56,082 nt of DNA from Eubacteriales bacterium. Lineage in GTDB: Bacteria; Bacillota; Clostridia; Oscillospirales; CAG-272. Positions within the stretch are counted from its first letter, which is position 1; the number at the start of each line of letters is the position of its first letter. The notes beneath the pieces are model-generated. The model searched no databases and was not told where the DNA came from. It saw only the letters and a program-made list of their open reading frames with translations. This document shows positions 2,384 to 53,091 of the stretch, one piece after another. A program made the position numbers and the translations under genes. The stretch spans positions 1 to 56,082 of the forward strand of contig JAZTZC010000470.1 in the NCBI GenBank assembly GCA_045637265.1. The letters run 5' to 3'.

Positions 2384-4366
2384 TCAATCCGCCACAAACA
2401 TTCGGAAATCAAACTTCTTCGGCGGGCGGGCGGTATTGCGGTCAAACGGCTTGCCGTCGCGCTTTGCCTTCTTTTCTTCGATGTCAAACCACAGATTGGT
2501 GATGGAGATTTCGCCTTCCTGGATGTCGGGGATTTCCAGACCGCCGTCGGCGTTCAGCAGTTCCTCTGCGACATCGAGCAGATTCAGCTTTTCTGCCGCC
2601 AATGCACGGTAGAAGCGGATACGGGGAAGTGCACGCTGTTCTTCAGACAGACCTTCTGTAAACTGCCAGAGCACTGTCCACATCTCGGAGCGGGCAAGCA
2701 TACGCGCGGTCATCTTACACAGGGAATTGTCGTTCTTTGCCATGTTGGCTGCTGCGAGGATCGTCTGGGATGCGGCCTGCATGTTGCCCTTGATACGGAA
2801 CAGCTCGGCACGGGCGTAGGTGTTCCATGCGTTGGTATGGCAGGCGCACGATGCATCCAGTGCTTCCTCTGCGTCCTCAATTTCACCGTTTGCCATGTAG
2901 GCGCAGGCGAGCATGTAGTGCGTCTTCCAGTAATACTTGTCGGGACCCTTTGCAGCCTTCTTTAAGAGATTCAGCCATTCGGGTCTGCGCTGGTAGGACA
3001 GAGGAGCGACCGTATCGTCGTCGTCACCCAGATTCAGCGAGCCGGTCTGAATGAGGCTCTGCCACATTGCCTGATCTGCTCCCATCGTACCGAAGTCGAG
3101 GTGCGGACAGAGACTCGGCATACCCTTTGCACGACGGCGCAGGTTTTCCAGAGCTGCCCAGCCTTCTCCGTACAGCGTCGCGGGAACGGCGGTCAGTGCC
3201 ATGGATTTGGTGTCGATCAGCTCCTGTTCCATTGCCTCGGAGGTGATGACGGTGTCAAGATAGCGCTCAACCTCTGCCTGTGCGCCGTGCCACTCGCCGT
3301 GAATCAGCGCAGGATCGGTGTGCGCAGGACCGTAGTATTCCATCCATTCCCACGCGGTCTTCGGCGGCATCGGGAGAACCTCATACTGGGAATGTGCCAG
3401 ACCGCACTGGATTTCGCAGTAGCGTCCGTCCATATAGTTTCCGCGTCCGTCGTCGCCGGAGAGGAATTCCTGCCACTTCGCGCCGCCCTGTCCGCGTCCC
3501 CAGACAAAGAGCTTTCTGCCCTTGAGGCGCGAGGTCGAGGTCTGAACAAGGCCGTAGCCGTTCTCGTCGATGTGGGAGGTATAGTAACGGTGGTTCTGAT
3601 AGGTCTTATAGAAGTAGTCGATCGCAATCGGATTGTTGGTCGGGTAGGTGACGTCGATGCCGTTTCTCACGGGAATCGGAACGATACCGACACCGCCCTC
3701 AATGGGTGTGTAAGCGCCGTCGGCAGGAACGACATTGCGCGCTTTTTCGTTGGACGGAACGGCAATGTTCGACCACCAGTACATGCCGGTTTCGCGCTGG
3801 CTGTCGTTGACCACGCGCATACGGCAGTGTAAGAAGGTTGCGTCCTCGGGCAGGAAGAAGTCCATCTGATGCGTGACGGCACGGATGCGCTCAAAGGAGT
3901 AGAAGCGCAGAACGGGAACACCGATGCCGGACTGCTCTGCGGTCAGGGTTGCCGTGAAGATCTGCGAGCAGGTGTAGGGATGGTGACCGATGATCGCGCC
4001 GCAGTTCCATTCGACGCCGCCCGATGCCCATGCGTTGCGCAGAGCCAGGTATGCAGGACGGTAGACGTGGTTGGCAAGGAGCAGCTCACGTCCTGCGTCC
4101 TTGTCGTAAAGCGACCAGAGCTTGCCGCCAGCCTCGGGAACGAATGTCGCGCGGATGTGGTCGTTTTCGAGGACATAGCTGTCCACGCCTTCTCTCGGTA
4201 CGTCGTGGGAATAGTTGTCCTGCGTCTTGTACGGGAACGCCGATGTGACACCGCTGTAGCCCAGCCACAGACCGTCGTCGTCGCCGAGAACTGAGGACGG
4301 TCCTTCGGAATCGGGGTTCGGACGGTTGACGTCATAAAGCAGGGGCAGGGTCGATGTGCCGTTCAT
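2384..4366 (-). CDS. DUF5107 domain protein with C-terminal TPR-like region
   Basis: 660-aa ORF. The N-terminal beta-rich part (LPLLYDV...HIRATFVPEAGGKLWSLYDK...GGVEWNCG) looks like the DUF5107 family. The true start is probably upstream, at ATC 4411 behind AAGGAGG (see findings). Confidence 0.8.
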   Translation of the reverse strand: MNGTSTLPLLYDVNRPNPDSEGPSSVLGDDDGLWLGYSGVTSAFPYKTQDNYSHDVPREGVDSYVLENDHIRATFVPEAGGKLWSLYDKDAGRELLLANHVYRPAYLALRNAWASGGVEWNCGAIIGHHPYTCSQIFTATLTAEQSGIGVPVLRFYSFERIRAVTHQMDFFLPEDATFLHCRMRVVNDSQRETGMYWWSNIAVPSNEKARNVVPADGAYTPIEGGVGIVPIPVRNGIDVTYPTNNPIAIDYFYKTYQNHRYYTSHIDENGYGLVQTSTSRLKGRKLFVWGRGQGGAKWQEFLSGDDGRGNYMDGRYCEIQCGLAHSQYEVLPMPPKTAWEWMEYYGPAHTDPALIHGEWHGAQAEVERYLDTVITSEAMEQELIDTKSMALTAVPATLYGEGWAALENLRRRAKGMPSLCPHLDFGTMGADQAMWQSLIQTGSLNLGDDDDTVAPLSYQRRPEWLNLLKKAAKGPDKYYWKTHYMLACAYMANGEIEDAEEALDASCACHTNAWNTYARAELFRIKGNMQAASQTILAAANMAKNDNSLCKMTARMLARSEMWTVLWQFTEGLSEEQRALPRIRFYRALAAEKLNLLDVAEELLNADGGLEIPDIQEGEISITNLWFDIEEKKAKRDGKPFDRNTARPPKKFDFRMFVAD

Positions 4367-6052: not shown

Positions 6053-6769
6053 TTATGCGTTTTCGGATGCCTTGTTCTTCAGTTCTTCCTGCTTGACGCG
6101 GACGGACTGACGGTAGATGATGTCGATTGCTTCGTCGACGTCAGCGGTATTTCTGACGCAGTATTCGAGGGTCTTGCCGTCCTTGAGGTTGATCTTGTAG
6201 ACGTCAACCTTGAGGGTGCAGTCCTTGCCGTCGACCATCTTGAAGGTAACTTCCTGTTCGTCGAGCTGAGAGGAAACAACATCTTCCCATGCGAAGTGCA
6301 GGTTTTCCTGTTCCATTTCGTCCTTGAGGATGGAGAACTTCTTGGAGAGGATACGAAGACCGTCGTTGGTGAAGTTCATGAGCAGACCACAGTAGTATTC
6401 GGTTCTGTACTTGAGGTCCTTACCGCGCTTGACGGGAACGGAGGATTCACGGGTGAAGTCGTAGCCGCCGAGAATGACAGCCTTGTGGATGACTTCGTAT
6501 CTGCGGGGGAACTTAAAGAGCTCGGAAGCGTCAGCTTCGATGGTGTTCATCTTGGAAGCGACAGCACCGTCGACGTCATCATCCTTCATGCCGCTGGTCA
6601 GGCTTGCGATCATGAAAATGATACCGGCAACAGCGATCAAAATACCAATCATGCGAGTTTGGTAATTCAGAAGGATTGCGAGTACAACACCGATGAGAAT
6701 GATCGGAAGACCGATTAAGAACAGCTTACTGTTCTTCTTGAAATACTTTTGATTCTTTGCGAAATCCAT
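6053..6769 (-). CDS. Hypothetical membrane protein (two N-terminal TM helices plus a soluble domain of about 170 aa)
   Basis: 238-aa ORF with RBS AAAGGAG. A consensus promoter TTGACG-17-TATAAT lies upstream on the minus strand (about 6815-6843). I do not recognise the family. Confidence 0.7.
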   Translation of the reverse strand: MDFAKNQKYFKKNSKLFLIGLPIILIGVVLAILLNYQTRMIGILIAVAGIIFMIASLTSGMKDDDVDGAVASKMNTIEADASELFKFPRRYEVIHKAVILGGYDFTRESSVPVKRGKDLKYRTEYYCGLLMNFTNDGLRILSKKFSILKDEMEQENLHFAWEDVVSSQLDEQEVTFKMVDGKDCTLKVDVYKINLKDGKTLEYCVRNTADVDEAIDIIYRQSVRVKQEELKNKASENA

Positions 6770-7657: not shown

Positions 7658-7686
7658 TTGACAAACGAACATTCGTGTGTTATAAT
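7658..7686 (+). promoter_or_regulatory. Consensus sigma-A promoter with a palindrome in the spacer
   Basis: TTGACA (7658-7663), a 17-nt spacer aacgaacattcgtgtgt, then TATAAT (7681-7686). The spacer contains ACGAA-ca-TTCGT. Confidence 0.7.
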
Positions 7687-20324: not shown

Positions 20325-20353
20325 ATTATAGTATACTTTCCTCCGGTTGTCAA
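20325..20353 (-). promoter_or_regulatory. Consensus sigma-A promoter of the three-SBP operon
   Basis: The minus strand reads TTGACA (20353-20348), a 17-nt spacer, then TATAAT (20330-20325). Confidence 0.7.
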
Positions 20354-49019: not shown

Positions 49020-49511
49020 ATGGCAAAGTCCAGATTTGACTCCCGTACAAAGCTTTTGCTCGGTGTCATCGCTGTTCTGCTTGCGGCTGTTGTGATTTGT
49101 CTGGTCATGACCGTGGAATCAAAATCGGAACTCAAAAACACGATGACAAATCTGAGCCGTTCCAGTGCACATTACGCGGCAGAATCCTTCAACTCATTCA
49201 ATAACGGCGGCGAGGACTATCTCTATACGGCAGCAGTTGCCGACTTCAATAATTTCCTGTGTACCTTCTATCAGGTGCACGGAGACGATATGAACGAGGA
49301 ATTCCTCGTCATCAATGAGGTCTACGGACAGTTGGTTATGAATTCCGACGTTGCAAAAACATGGATTCCGCTGCTCTGCCATGTACTGGACAATTTGGCT
49401 GACGATCTGACCAATGCACATGCACATGAGGAGCTTGCAAACATCCGCAATGCACTCATCGAAAACCGTGCGGCAGCCGAGGAAGATCTGACCCATTCCC
49501 ACGAACATTGA
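49020..49511 (+). CDS. Hypothetical membrane-anchored protein
   Basis: 163 aa with one N-terminal TM helix ([19 protein letters not shown]). Tightly packed between argH and the hydratase gene. Confidence 0.6.
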
Positions 49512-49549
49512 TCGATTTTCATAAACTCCAAACAGAGAGGTATATTCCC

Positions 49550-51838
49550 ATGATTGAGAAACTCAACGGCGGCGCATATCTTGTCGACGGCGAAACGCTG
49601 GTTACCGACGTATCTGCGCTGGATGCGATGGGCATCCGTACAACGAAAGAAGAAGCAAAGAACAATACCATGGCGTGGTCGATTCTGTCTGCGCACAATA
49701 TATCGGGAGACGACAGCCAGCTCAAAATCAAGTTTGACGCGATGGCATCCCACGATATCACCTATGTCGGCATCATCCAGACAGCACGTGCCAGCGGTCT
49801 GACGGAATTTCCGCTGCCGTATGTGCTGACCAACTGCCACAACAGTCTGTGCGCGGTCGGCGGTACGATCAACGAAGATGACCATGTTTTCGGTCTTTCT
49901 GCCGCAAAGAAGTACGGCGGCAATTTCGTCCCCGCACACCTTGCCGTCATTCACTCCTATATGCGTGAAATGATGTCCGGCTGCGGCAAAATGATCCTCG
50001 GCTCCGACAGCCATACCCGTTACGGTGCGCTCGGTACAATGGCAATCGGCGAAGGCGGTCCGGAACTCGTCAAACAGCTTTGCCGCCGTACCTATGACAT
50101 TGCACGTCCCGAGGTCGTCGGTGTCTATCTGACGGGCAAGCCGTCTCACGGTGTCGGTCCGCAGGACGTGGCTCTCGCGCTGATCGGTGCGACGTTTGCC
50201 GACGGATTTGTCAAGAACCGCGTGCTCGAATTTGTCGGTGACGGTATTGCAGGTCTCCCGATCGAATTCCGCAACGGCATCGACGTTATGACCACCGAAA
50301 CCACCTGCCTGTCTTCCATCTGGGTCACCGACGAGGAAACCCACCGCTACTTCGCTGTCCACGGCAGAGAAAACGAATACAAGAAGCTCACACCCGGTAA
50401 GGTTGCCTACTATGACCGCGTTGTCAAGATCGATCTTTCCGCACTTGAGCCGATGATCGCCCTGCCGTTCCATCCCTCCAATGTTTATACCATCCGTGAG
50501 CTGAACGAAAATGCACGCGACATTCTCCGCAAGGTTGAACTTTCCGCCGCAGAACAGCTCGAAACGCCGAATCTGACCTTTACGCTGACCGATAAAATCG
50601 CGCCCGACGGACGTGTGCTCGTCGATCAGGGTGTCATTGCAGGCTGTGCCGGCGGTACCTATTATAACCTCGCCATTGCCGCAAACATTCTCGACGGCGC
50701 ATCTACCGGCTGCGGCGCGTTCCAGTTGTCCGCATATCCGGCAAGCCAGCCCGTCAATCTCGCACTTGTACGTTCCGGCGCGGCTGAAACGCTGCTCTCT
50801 GCAGGTGTTACCCTGCGTACCGCGTTCTGCGGACCGTGCTTCGGTGCAGGTGACGTTCCGTCCAACGGCGGTCTGTCGATTCGCCATTCTACGAGAAACT
50901 TCCCGAACCGCGAAGGCTCCAAGCCCTCCGGCGGTCAGATCGCATCCGTTGCGCTGATGGATGCTCGTTCCATTGCGGCAACCGCTGCAAACGGCGGTGT
51001 GCTGACCTCTGCCGCAGAGATTGACTACTGTGAATCCATTCCCGAATACAAGTTTGACGGTTCCATCTACAACAAGCGCTGCTACTTCGGCTGGGGCAAG
51101 CCCGAAACCGATGCCGCGCTGAAGTTCGGTCCGAACATTGCGGACTGGCCGAAGATGGAAGCGCTGACCGACGATCTGCTGCTGCGTGTTGCATCGGTCA
51201 TCACCGACCCTGTTACCACAACGGATGAGTTGATTCCGTCGGGCGAAACATCGTCCTACCGTTCCAATCCGCTGAAGCTCGCCGAATTTGCACTTTCCCG
51301 CAAGGATCCTGCCTATGTCGGACGCGCAAAGGAGGTCAAGATGCTCGAAAATATGCGTCTGGACGGTGTCGAACCTGCTCCCATCAAGGAAATTTACGAT
51401 GTTATCCGTACCTTTGACGGAAAGGAAGCCCTCGATGCATCCCGCGTCGGTATCGGTACGCTCGTATACGCAAACAAGCCCGGTGACGGCTCTGCCAGAG
51501 AACAGGCTGCTTCCTGCCAGAAGGTACTCGGCGGCTGGGCAAATATTGCGGTAGAATACGCAACCAAGCGGTACCGTTCCAACCTTATCAACTGGGGTAT
51601 GTTGCCCTTCGTCTTTGCGGATGCAAAGCAGGCAGAAGCCCTGCCGTTTGGTATCGGCGACTGGATTTTTGTCCCCGATGTCCGCCGCGCCGTTGCCGAA
51701 AAGGCAGAGACGATCACGGCATATACCGTCAAAGCAGACGGCACGAAGACAGAATTTGTCCTCACACTGGGTGCATTGACCGACGATGAACGCAAGATCA
51801 TCCTCGATGGCTGTTTGATCAACTATTATAACAATTAA
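49550..51838 (+). CDS. Aconitase-family hydratase (fused large and swivel domains)
   Basis: GSDSHT, CGPCFG and [10 protein letters not shown] motifs are typical of aconitase/IPM isomerase superfamily enzymes. I chose the start at ATG 49550, after GAGAGG. Confidence 0.8.
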
Positions 51839-51844
51839 CGAAAC

Positions 51845-51881
51845 ATCCCCGCACGGTCATTGCCTGACGCTGTGCGGGGAT
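51845..51881. terminator. 10-bp stem hairpin after the hydratase gene
   Basis: atccccgcac...gtgcggggat. It is followed by tgttc on + and gtttcgtt on -. It may also stop the convergent toxin transcript. Confidence 0.6.
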
Positions 51882-51895
51882 TGTTCAAAAATCCA

Positions 51896-51924
51896 TTGAC
51901 AAAGCTTTTTATCTGTGGTATAAT
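51896..51924 (+). promoter_or_regulatory. Perfect consensus sigma-A promoter of a non-coding transcript
   Basis: TTGACA (51896-51901), a 17-nt spacer aagctttttatctgtgg, then TATAAT (51919-51924). Confidence 0.75.
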
Positions 51925-51930
51925 AAAGAT

Positions 51931-52016
51931 ACAGAAAGCACCGGTGACGGTACTTCCCGATTTTGGTTAAGAATTAACCGCCTCGTTTGGAAGCTGAGGG
52001 CGGTTAATTCTTTTTA
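51931..52016 (+). ncRNA. Candidate antitoxin sRNA (about 86 nt) antisense to the 3' end of the small toxin ORF
   Basis: It starts about 7 nt after the -10 box and contains no ORF. It ends in a 12-bp stem (gaattaaccgcc 51971-51982 / ggcggttaattc 51999-52010) plus TTTTT (52011-52015). The terminator overlaps the stop and last codons of the minus-strand peptide gene. Confidence 0.6.
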
Positions 52017-52093
52017 TTATGATTATCAATGTAAGTCATCAGTGCAAGGATAAATCCGGCAAAAAGGAATAACACATCCCAAGTAACAAACAC
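52004..52093 (-). CDS. Candidate type I toxin: 29-aa hydrophobic peptide (holin-like-toxin style)
   Basis: GTG at 52093 lies 7 nt after GAGGGGAGG. Translation: MFVTWDVLFLFAGFILALMTYIDNHNKKN*. One predicted TM helix plus a polar/basic tail. The 63-aa ORF-track version (to 52195) lacks an RBS. Confidence 0.55.
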   Translation of the reverse strand: MFVTWDVLFLFAGFILALMTYIDNHNKKN

Positions 52094-52100
52094 GATCACA

Positions 52101-52161
52101 CCTCCCCTCATCGAGGAGGCAAAACAAAAAGATTTGCATCCCCGTTTCTGGTTCGGGGATG
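52101..52161 (-). promoter_or_regulatory. Structured 5' leader: terminator-like hairpin plus SD-sequestering hairpin
   Basis: The minus-strand RNA reads CAUCCCCG-aaccagaaa-CGGGGAUG followed by CAAAUCUUUUUGUUUU (52161-52121). GCCUCCUC-gau-GAGGGGAGG (52120-52101) then pairs an anti-SD with the SD. Confidence 0.55.
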
Positions 52162-52213
52162 TACCGCCACCGTACTGGTGCTTTCCGAGTGCCATGATTG
52201 CGACACCATGGAT

Positions 52214-52242
52214 ATTATATCATAGAACTGATGATTTGTCAA
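52214..52242 (-). promoter_or_regulatory. Perfect consensus sigma-A promoter of the toxin mRNA
   Basis: The minus strand reads TTGACA (52242-52237), a 17-nt spacer aatcatcagttctatga, then TATAAT (52219-52214). Confidence 0.75.
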
Positions 52243-52406
52243 TCTGAACAGAAGGATGAATGAAAGAAAAGGTGCCGTACCCAATGGGTGATATTCTTAT
52301 CGGAGGAATCACCATATCGAAAAGTTTCCACCGACCAACTAATGGTTTTGTGGGAACTTTATTTATATATGCAGAAGAAACGGCTATGAAAAGGCTTGTC
52401 AGATTG

Positions 52407-52826
52407 TCAAGCTAAGTGCAACATTTTTAAAAAATCATTCGCTTCTCTTAACATTTGTTTTGTGTTTTCAAAAGTTAATTCTTGAAGAGCGAGGTCAAAA
52501 GGAAACAGTAAGTATTCAAAATCCTCGAAGTCATTATTCCGTTTCGGCGTTTGATTTTTAAAATTCGCCAAGAAATATATGACCGTTTTTGTATTGCCAT
52601 TATCCATTTGATAAGATATTTCATAACGAAAATCTCTGTTGATCTGTACGTTAACGGAAGTTTCTTCCAATGTTTCCCGAAGTGCGGTTTCTTCCTTGCT
52701 CTCATTTGCTTCAACATGACCTTTTGGAAAACCGCAATACTCATCATCTTTTGCTTTTACAAGCAAGTAATGAATCGTTCCGTTATTGATCGTGTACGGT
52801 ATTGTTCCACAAGATTTTTCAAGCAT
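52407..52826 (-). CDS. Nudix hydrolase, NUDT2-like bis(5'-nucleosyl)-tetraphosphatase (Ap4A hydrolase)
   Basis: SCGTIPY...YLLVK...GFPKGHVEANESKEETALRETLEETSV is a Nudix box very close to the animal/bacterial Ap4A hydrolase pattern (PKGHVEPGE..ALRET.EE.G). The gene is conspicuously AT-rich. Confidence 0.85.
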   Translation of the reverse strand: MLEKSCGTIPYTINNGTIHYLLVKAKDDEYCGFPKGHVEANESKEETALRETLEETSVNVQINRDFRYEISYQMDNGNTKTVIYFLANFKNQTPKRNNDFEDFEYLLFPFDLALQELTFENTKQMLREANDFLKMLHLA

Positions 52827-53091
52827 TGGTGTTCCCCTTTTATCGCCAGTTTCGCATTTGTTTTACAAATGCATTGGGCAATGCCCACGCCCCTATTATA
52901 CCACATAAACAGTAGAAAATCAATATGCGGTTTTTATATTTTAGCGTTCTCCGTTAAGAACAACAGAGAAACCCGTACAGCACCTTGTTTCTATTCCTGA
53001 TAAAATAATGAGAAAATTTCCAAAATCTACTTGCGCGGAACGTCATTTTGTGGTATAGTTAATAGAACGAAAATCGCGGAGGTACTTCCAC

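Follow-up and report, generated by a model that had tools for sequence, protein, structure and literature searches.

The closest described counterparts of the locus analyzed here are type I toxin-antitoxin systems of the TxpA/RatA family. The locus lies at positions 51896-52242 of a 56,082-nt contig from an uncultured gut Clostridia bacterium (JAZTZC010000470.1; 'the window' below means this whole stretch of DNA). It carries a gene for a hydrophobic peptide of 29 amino acids (aa) on the minus strand and, convergent with it, a predicted small RNA (sRNA) on the plus strand. With a probability of about 0.7, we read it as a chromosomal type I toxin-antitoxin-like module of the TxpA/RatA (Pfam Hol_Tox) family.

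TxpA-like genes have been found in Lactobacillales and Clostridiales, and the 'holin-like toxins' were put in the same family (Fozo 2010; PMC2887945). The family member EF3263 is toxic and has a 3' sRNA of ~110 nt (PMC2887945). On Listeria plasmids, rli28 overlaps a BsrH-like open reading frame (ORF) and opposes RatA (PMC9484302). Transcription of txpA continues beyond RatA's terminator as far as the gene's own, and the duplex is cut by RNase III (PMC3531473). For txpA, bsrG and EF3263, a peptide that is toxic when overproduced and an sRNA that neutralizes it and favours RNase III-dependent decay are on record (PMC3531473, PMC3834814, PMC2887945). A 2019 review of Clostridia reported TxpA-like sequences only in Clostridium bolteae (PMC6563280). 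In bsrG mRNA, nt 1-35 pair with nt 232-262 in a helix named P1 (PMC3834814). The antitoxin SR4 frees nt 1-33, and the helix at the Shine-Dalgarno (SD) sequence grows from 4 to 8 bp, as probing and genetics established (PMC3834814; Jahn & Brantl 2013). Anti-SD elements, 5' hairpins and 5'-3' interactions are given as hallmarks of type I toxin mRNAs in T1TAdb (PMC8594479).

The window locus resembles txpA/RatA of Bacillus subtilis and its kin, including EF3263/RatA of Enterococcus faecalis and rli28/RatA of Listeria plasmids, in its Hol_Tox-type single-helix peptide with a Lys-rich tail, in an SD buried in the leader, and in a toxin mRNA that is expected to pass the sRNA terminator. It differs from them in scale. 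RatA is 222 nt long, whereas the window sRNA, at ~86 nt, is much shorter, and the toxin mRNA would overlap the whole of it. The peptide also begins MFVTWE/D, in contrast to the MSVYE of Bacilli. Our reading extends a classic Bacilli family of type I systems into uncultured ruminant-gut Clostridia.

Layout, relatives and family of the locus

A first-pass annotation, made from the letters of the window, had proposed a type I toxin-antitoxin module between two facing, perfect TTGACA-N17-TATAAT promoters. Both promoters are present (Table 1) and are the only 12/12 matches to this pattern in a 3-kb scan. The minus-strand promoter is predicted to give a toxin mRNA of ~240-285 nt that starts near 52207. 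Taking the start ~7 nt past the -10 box, the leader agrees with the ~114 nt given earlier. As annotated, GTG at 52093 stands 7 nt past the SD and opens the 29-aa frame. The plus strand would be transcribed constitutively into an antisense RNA of ~86 nt, perfectly complementary to the last codons and the 3' untranslated region (UTR) of the toxin mRNA. No ORF was found in this RNA, in keeping with the earlier description, and its fold has -29.5 kcal/mol (z = -3.2).

The two transcripts share the hairpin T1. Read on the plus strand, T1 is the terminator of the sRNA, with TTTTTATTAT behind it; read on the minus strand, it takes the form of an A-tract/stem/U-rich hairpin right after the toxin stop codon. 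Its 3' arm and U-tail overlay the stop codon and the final codons of the toxin, as had been claimed, with a stem of 14 bp rather than the 12 bp first described. T1 is in the RNAalifold consensus (pairs 227-237 / 259-269), with AU<->UA changes.

Table 1. Coordinates of features at the locus, listed along the toxin transcript and then along the sRNA (window numbering).
Feature	Position	Strand	Remarks
Toxin promoter	52214..52242	-	TTGACA-N17-TATAAT, 12/12, TG ahead of -10 box
5'-terminal hairpin P0 (GGUGUC...GGCACU)	52188..52207	-	Begins at presumed transcription start
Leader segment X, 5' strand of helix P1	52156..52186	-	Same sense as sRNA 5' end
Leader hairpin P2 (CAUCCCCG / CGGGGAUG), 8 bp	52137..52161	-	5' arm overlaps 3' end of X
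Alternative hairpin 2:3 (GGGGAUGCAAA / UUUGCCUCCUC)	52113..52143	-	Would occupy anti-SD and release SD
Hairpin P3, anti-SD GCCUCCUC + SD GAGGGGAGGU	52100..52120	-	99% of cells paired, 35 loci
29-aa peptide gene MFVTWDVLFLFAGFILALMTYIDNHNKKN + stop	52004..52093	-	GTG start; Hol_Tox/TxpA family
Shared hairpin T1, 14-bp perfect stem (51969-51982 / 51999-52012)	51969..52012	both	
Toxin 3'-UTR segment X', 3' strand of P1	51933..51958	-	Exact complement of sRNA 5' stem-loop
Candidate toxin terminator hairpin	51922..51959	-	Terminator-like, 12 pairs
Antitoxin (sRNA) promoter	51896..51924	+	TTGACA-N17-TATAAT, 12/12
Putative antitoxin sRNA, ~86 nt	51931..52017	+	5' stem-loop (51934-51958), spacer, terminator T1
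Hairpin after aconitase-family gene	51840..51886	both	Terminator of that gene; identical in L002

Relatives were collected with a back-translated pattern of the peptide searched against one genome per GTDB species, which gave 64 loci (numbered with an L below). About 45 are from metagenome-assembled genomes (MAGs) of Clostridia, Oscillospiraceae and 'Ruminococcus', mostly from ruminant gut; the rest are from Lactobacillus, Weissella and Lentilactobacillus. The first-pass annotation had named conservation of the peptide, promoters and hairpins as a check. In the ~45 Clostridia loci, which come from differing species, both promoters, the anti-SD/SD hairpin, the 29-30-aa frame and the shared terminator are all kept. 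All parts are likewise conserved in an alignment of the sRNA with 43 homologues and in the leader alignment. The type I reading is thereby supported by 60+ related loci at the level of sequence. Several MAGs hold two or three copies of the module.

The two promoters are conserved to different degrees. The sRNA promoter is 12/12 in 40 of 44 Clostridia loci, and its -10 box always ends 74-84 nt past the toxin stop codon. Ahead of the start codon by 105-125 nt, the toxin promoter is 12/12 in 10 loci and 11/12 in 27. An exact antitoxin promoter against a weaker toxin promoter fits the need for an antitoxin excess. In the near-identical strain L002, the hexamers of the sRNA promoter are kept and its spacer has diverged. 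A predicted convergent sRNA whose terminator lies over the toxin stop codon, the arrangement of txpA/RatA, is thus recovered from sequence comparison in the window and its relatives.

Across the Clostridia loci, the usual weakening of the toxin promoter is TTGACT or TATACT. Perfect consensus promoters are not rare in the window, where eight are found against ~0.01 per window by chance, so the facing pair stands out less than it first seems to; exact consensus promoters seem to be in routine use in this genome. The six others are at 7658, 13221, 21329 and 22686 on the plus strand and at 20353 and 13142 on the minus strand, and include the divergent pairs 13142/13221 and 20353/21329.

The peptide is a single helix with a Lys-rich tail, and its 15-residue Kyte-Doolittle means are about 2.0-2.4 over residues 1-22. 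Minority bases in the related loci fall 147/19/304 on the three codon positions of the 29-aa ORF and 257/257/254 in the 60 nt upstream of it, where there is no codon periodicity. The frame upstream of the conserved Met stays open for 5 to 64 codons in relatives. Because the substitution pattern is periodic only in the 29-aa frame and the upstream frame varies in length, we take the 29-aa frame as coding and the 63-aa ORF of the ORF track (52195..52004) as an artefact, as the first-pass annotation had it. That annotation had also reckoned with homologous loci that keep the RNA structures and lose the frame, or that keep the 63-aa frame; the relatives keep the 29-aa frame instead. We give next to no weight to the 63-aa ORF as the real product. 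It is the longest ATG-initiated frame, and similar extended calls exist in two metagenomes (P0001 and P0002). Its ATG, however, lies within the 5' hairpin and has no SD, whereas the conserved SD is 7 nt ahead of the 29-aa GTG or ATG, and relatives have in-frame stops 5-64 codons upstream. P0001 and P0002 were the only matches of the 63-aa ORF among 5.8 billion protein clusters. They are over-extended metagenome gene calls, with last 29-30 residues nearly identical to those of the window and upstream parts unrelated to its 63-aa ORF. Only two proteins match because ORFs so small are rarely called: genes of this kind are almost never annotated, with two protein matches against 64 loci at the DNA level.

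Two relatives appear to be decaying. In L044 (4001-4138) the stop codon is gone and the ORF runs on for 16 more codons, to a new stop just 35 nt short of the sRNA promoter. L060 (3821-4054) has a frameshifted ORF with only the C-terminal 17 residues in frame.

The resemblance to small holin-like toxins noted earlier holds at family level. Pfam Hol_Tox (PF16935) matches the window peptide with 24.2 bits against a cut-off of 23.3, and it matches 36 of 39 distinct family peptides (best E 2.3e-15). The Lactobacillus, Weissella and Lentilactobacillus peptides have the tail LLTYIDNHNKK in common and begin with MSVYE, which we take to be the N-terminal motif of TxpA and BsrG. On 117 Lactobacillales plasmids, some of them mobilisable or conjugative, the homologue is labelled 'putative holin-like toxin'.

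Two Rfam families also meet the homologous Lactobacillales loci. RatA (RF01776) matches the convergent sRNA of the Lentilactobacillus locus L067 with 51.2 bits (gathering cut-off 49), and rli28 (RF01492) matches the leader and the 5' part of the ORF in L050, L055 and L067 at gathering score. Rfam lists rli28 as a Listeria sRNA; since it covers the leader and the first Hol_Tox codons, the entry represents a type I toxin mRNA's 5' part and not an sRNA that stands by itself. The earlier description of the module as undescribed therefore stands for the Clostridia sub-clade and its RNAs, but not for the family. Judged by its peptide and the order of its parts, the module is a divergent Clostridia sub-clade of the known TxpA/RatA-Hol_Tox family and not a new kind of system.

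The rli28 matches are at 3873-4051 in L050, 3858-4050 in L055, and 3364-3548 and 4349-4533 in L067, which has at least three rli28-type copies within 1.2 kb. In the window, Rfam gave no relevant match anywhere at gathering score, and only sub-threshold, unrelated matches over the toxin region at E <= 10. A profile search against PDB sequences found nothing. The peptide had no tblastn match in phage genomes and two weak, Lactobacillus-like matches in IMG/VR, so there is no sign that the Clostridia clade is phage-borne.

The same layout could serve a small membrane regulator, in the way that ComI inhibits competence, kept low by a cis-antisense RNA and with a physiological role rather than one in addiction or defence. 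The window peptide does score 19 bits with ComI (NCBIfam NF052249), the locus sits amid housekeeping genes (argininosuccinate lyase, aconitase family, NUDIX, HAD), and some family members are non-toxic on overproduction (PMC2887945). The ComI score is nevertheless far under the equivalog cut-off of 55, and the closest characterized relatives, TxpA, BsrG and EF3263, are toxic. Two to three copies per genome, changing contexts and Lactobacillales plasmids make up a distribution typical of toxin-antitoxin modules. We regard a regulatory peptide as unlikely and retain the toxin-antitoxin reading.

A probable closing helix, P1, supported by covariation

In every locus there is a likeness between leader segment X and the opening ~30 nt of the sRNA. 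The first-pass annotation had described this likeness as a homologous 5' module on both RNAs and as inverted repeats in the DNA, which we recovered at 51934-51958 versus 52156-52185. Because the sRNA is antisense to the toxin 3' UTR, the leader is also complementary to that 3' UTR (X', 51958-51933). The variable part of X and of the sRNA differs between loci and stays matched inside each locus. L022 has CGTAAGAGTTACC in both RNAs; L024 and L025 have CGAGGA.AGCC and CGGTGCTTCC; the window and L034 have GAAAGC.CC and CGGTAC. The shared module is most likely the footprint of a covarying 5'-3' helix, P1, inside the toxin mRNA.

Full-length mRNAs were folded with the start site as one end and the complement of the sRNA promoter as the other. 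P1 is in the minimum free energy (MFE) structure of all 35 (16-35 pairs) and in the RNAalifold consensus structure. The 35-locus alignment gives P1 25 pairs with 96.3% of cells paired, and 13 of the 25 pairs change on both sides (49 cells). None of 500 shuffles attained any of five measures, and slid controls had 2-7 both-side-changed pairs and 31-61% pairing.

The cells of P1 that are not Watson-Crick pairs comprise 113 G·U versus 10 A·C, or 51 versus 10 without two fixed G·U columns. G·U so far above A·C points to the toxin-sense RNA as the target of selection, and neither to DNA nor to the opposite strand. This bears on whether the inverted repeat acts as DNA, either as an operator pair for a dimeric regulator or as a recombination or cruciform site, with the RNA complementarity incidental. 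The arms are similarly spaced downstream of two similar promoters, as an operator pair might be. Yet nearly all their mismatches are transitions, with G·U as the outcome on the toxin-sense RNA where the other strand would have A·C; the arms also differ by a leader insertion of 4-6 nt, drift between species is compensated, and no regulator gene accompanies the module. A DNA-level role is barely credible beside pairing within the toxin mRNA.

As an alternative, independent local hairpins were tried in the leader (X1:X2) and in the 3' UTR (X2':X1'). They are 88% and 83% paired, no better than shuffles, and were rejected in favour of P1 as the source of the shared module because neither covaries above shuffles.

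The pairing extends to the Lactobacillales relatives. With a 30-nt leader window, leader and 3' UTR pair at -25 to -39 kcal/mol, while shuffled 3' UTRs reach about -19; no shuffle out of 300 did as well in 8 of 12 loci, and there are compensatory changes between genera. Duplex folding of the whole leader with the whole 3' UTR was uninformative (z -2.7 to +1.5), because long inputs inflate global duplexes.

A 5'-3' closing helix with its 3' strand inside the antitoxin-complementary region is the bsrG/SR4 type of arrangement, and it is what we find here. In bsrG/SR4 of B. subtilis prophage SPbeta, a long helix P1 likewise closes the toxin mRNA, the antitoxin binds its 3' strand, and the freed 5' nucleotides refold and hold the SD more tightly, so that the antitoxin acts on both decay and translation. 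That mechanism was shown by probing and genetics, whereas the mechanism here is proposed from covariation and folding. SR4 is also larger, with 183 nt and four stem-loops, and the SD change predicted for the window is nil. The covariation-backed closing helix is the most useful new point of this analysis, since it would generalize the bsrG/SR4 mechanism. The ~45 natural variants give covariation support to an antitoxin that binds at the 3' end and controls the ribosome-binding site through a long-range helix, as experimentally shown for bsrG/SR4.

Pairing of 5' and 3' ends also gives a distinct full-length fold in hok/sok (fbi-tac) and in H. pylori aapA1/IsoA1, and there too co-transcriptional hairpins block early translation. 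In these systems the closed form is inert and becomes active by 3' trimming, and the antisense RNA is directed at the 5' region. In the window, by contrast, the 3' strand of P1 is what the antisense RNA targets, and translation is predicted to be easier from the closed form. With its sRNA at the 3' end and a Hol_Tox peptide instead of Hok, the locus is not of the hok/sok type. The par locus (fst RNA I / RNA II) of pAD1 has convergent transcripts, a shared bidirectional terminator and repeats near both 5' ends. Its repeats are direct in the DNA and make the two RNAs complementary at their 5' ends. Those of the window are inverted and make the RNAs alike, which means that the leader would compete with the sRNA and not pair with it; nor is the toxin Fst-like.

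The proposed SD switch and mechanism

The leader begins with P0, a position occupied in all relatives by a hairpin of differing sequence; in L002, P0 has two compensating transitions (GGUGCC...GGCACC). Four segments follow: 1 (CUUCCC-like), 2 (GGGAAC-like), 3 (the anti-SD) and 4 (the SD). The pairing of anti-SD and SD proposed earlier is present, between GCCUCCUC at 52120-52113 and GAGGGGAGG(U) at 52109-52100. P2 is kept in relatives through compensatory changes. Because the 3' end of X doubles as the 5' arm of P2, the leader has four interacting segments. Across the 35 loci, the combination 1:2 + 3:4 (P2 + P3) is 96.7% paired. It is mutually exclusive with hairpin 2:3, which has 97.1% of cells paired and four pairs with changes on both sides, and which is present in the full-length MFE of most relatives.

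The first-pass annotation had described a hairpin followed by a U-tract in the leader. The 8-bp hairpin is there (52161-52137), but the U-run begins 6 nt past its stem. This run is better explained as part of the conserved hairpin 2:3 than as a terminator tail, and hairpin and U-tract together probably serve as one arm in an SD switch and not as an attenuator.

The same features could be put down to a riboswitch or transcription attenuator with a conserved GGUGGCGGUUGCUUCCC core, hairpin and U-run, the plus-strand RNA being an orphan aptamer copy with a terminator. The leader core is indeed invariant in 35 loci, a U-rich run follows the hairpin, and the same module heads both RNAs. We consider this very improbable. 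No Rfam family matches, and the module varies between loci and is matched within each, a pattern that marks pairing and not a pocket for a ligand. In P1 it is the invariant Gs that take part in G·U pairs, and the U-run begins 4-6 nt past the stem and pairs in the conserved hairpin 2:3. The riboswitch/attenuator, DNA-operator and 63-aa-protein readings were rejected on Rfam, covariation, G·U bias and codon evidence.

In L002 (400-520) and L001 (1060-1190), the P2 region is swapped for ~85 nt of unrelated hairpins, among them a terminator-like GCUCCUCU..AGAGGAGC + U5. Both loci still have X, the pairing of anti-SD and SD, the sRNA and the ORF, which here starts with ATG. Large leader insertions are also found in L019 and L065.

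The accessibility of the SD was modelled in four states. Over 35 loci, its mean unpaired probability is 0.05 in the nascent leader, 0.05 in an mRNA ending at T1, 0.25 in the full-length mRNA with P1, and 0.05 again when the sRNA-complementary region is blocked.

These values suggest the following sequence of events. The nascent leader would fold into P2 and P3, which buries the SD. Once the 3' UTR is transcribed, X would pair with X' to form the 25-bp closing helix P1. In most family members, P1 would then take the 5' arm of P2, the 3' arm of P2 would capture the anti-SD (hairpin 2:3), and the SD would be partly freed. The sRNA, which has the same sequence as X, would pair with X' by A-U where the leader uses G·U, and so could displace the leader, which would bury the SD again. 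The long sRNA:mRNA duplex would be a likely substrate of RNase III. The antitoxin would thus act at the 3' end and yet control translation initiation 200 nt upstream.

Stated for the whole family, from Oscillospiraceae to Lactobacillales, the proposal is that the leader is a maintained, G·U-weakened mimic of the antitoxin, and that the antitoxin strand-displaces the closing helix and flips the four-segment SD switch. The Clostridia would form a distinct RNA family, missed by current Rfam models, whose minimal antitoxin of 86 nt lies fully inside the toxin 3' UTR. We offer this general form tentatively and rate its chances at a little under even. More boldly, short transcripts of the leader that stop after P2 might act in trans on X', as a second, self-encoded antitoxin competitor.

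Several points weigh against our reading of the locus and of its switch. The SD of the window itself is buried in all four modelled states (0.14/0.14/0.15/0.14); its 8-bp GC-rich P2 outcompetes the extension of P1. The SD also stays buried in the models of L024, L025, L034 and L035. The opening step may be absent in the window or wrongly modelled. Wilcoxon P values on SD accessibility are overstated, because the loci are phylogenetically linked. At the RNA level, the RatA and rli28 models match nothing in 51700-52500, even at E <= 10. As the window RNAs match neither family, their membership rests on the peptide and on the synteny of the parts. YhzE-2, and TxpA in E. coli, were not toxic when overproduced (PMC2887945). 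What we infer comprises the transcripts and where they end, the toxicity of the peptide, which way the switch turns and what RNase III contributes.

The toxin mRNA's 3' end raises a further difficulty. Most toxin transcripts may stop short of X' at T1, which looks bidirectional; P1 would then be confined to read-through RNA. The final hairpin of the mRNA is formed by X' itself in the Clostridia clade; in the Lactobacillales relatives there is a strong terminator distinct from it. The candidate toxin terminator hairpin (51959-51932) has no covariation above shuffles, and for that reason we place the end of the toxin mRNA there only provisionally. The hairpin beyond it, which terminates the aconitase-family gene, is a possible backstop for toxin read-through.

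Genomic setting of the module

The neighbours of the module in the window are chromosomal housekeeping genes: argininosuccinate lyase, aconitase-family, NUDIX, URO-D-like, HAD and EamA. Synteny with the aconitase-family and URO-D-like neighbours is found only in the near-identical contigs L001 and L002, so the flanking genes are uninformative on function. Elsewhere the module adjoins serine recombinase, Bro-N, FtsK, HTH and SNF2/HEPN genes, and other copies adjoin core genes such as ilvC (IlvC), rplA (ribosomal protein L1) and tRNA synthetase genes. This scattered, multi-copy distribution fits a toxin-antitoxin module. The copies beside recombinase and defence genes appear to sit in mobile or defence islands. 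Their neighbours include a large serine recombinase, FtsK/SpoIIIE, an XRE-type HTH and SNF2/HEPN_Swt1 (e.g. in L013, and upstream in L012/L015).

Directly upstream of the toxin promoter, ~52260-53060 has 35-39% GC (window mean 52.6%) and carries the NUDIX gene (52407-52826, minus strand). The segment is absent from L001 and L002, where the toxin promoter is ~170 bp from the URO-D-like gene, and it looks like a strain-specific insertion.

On the other side, a plus-strand gene at 49508-51838 with a TTG start encodes a 776-aa 'aconitase' with a weak Aconitase_C match (26.6 bits). Proteins ~30% identical to it are encoded near the toxin loci L038 and L039, and it may be an aconitase-family paralogue rather than AcnA. 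In L042, an unrelated azaaromatic (yjdF) riboswitch (6635-6736, minus strand; 93.8 bits) lies 2.5 kb from the Lactobacillus toxin locus.

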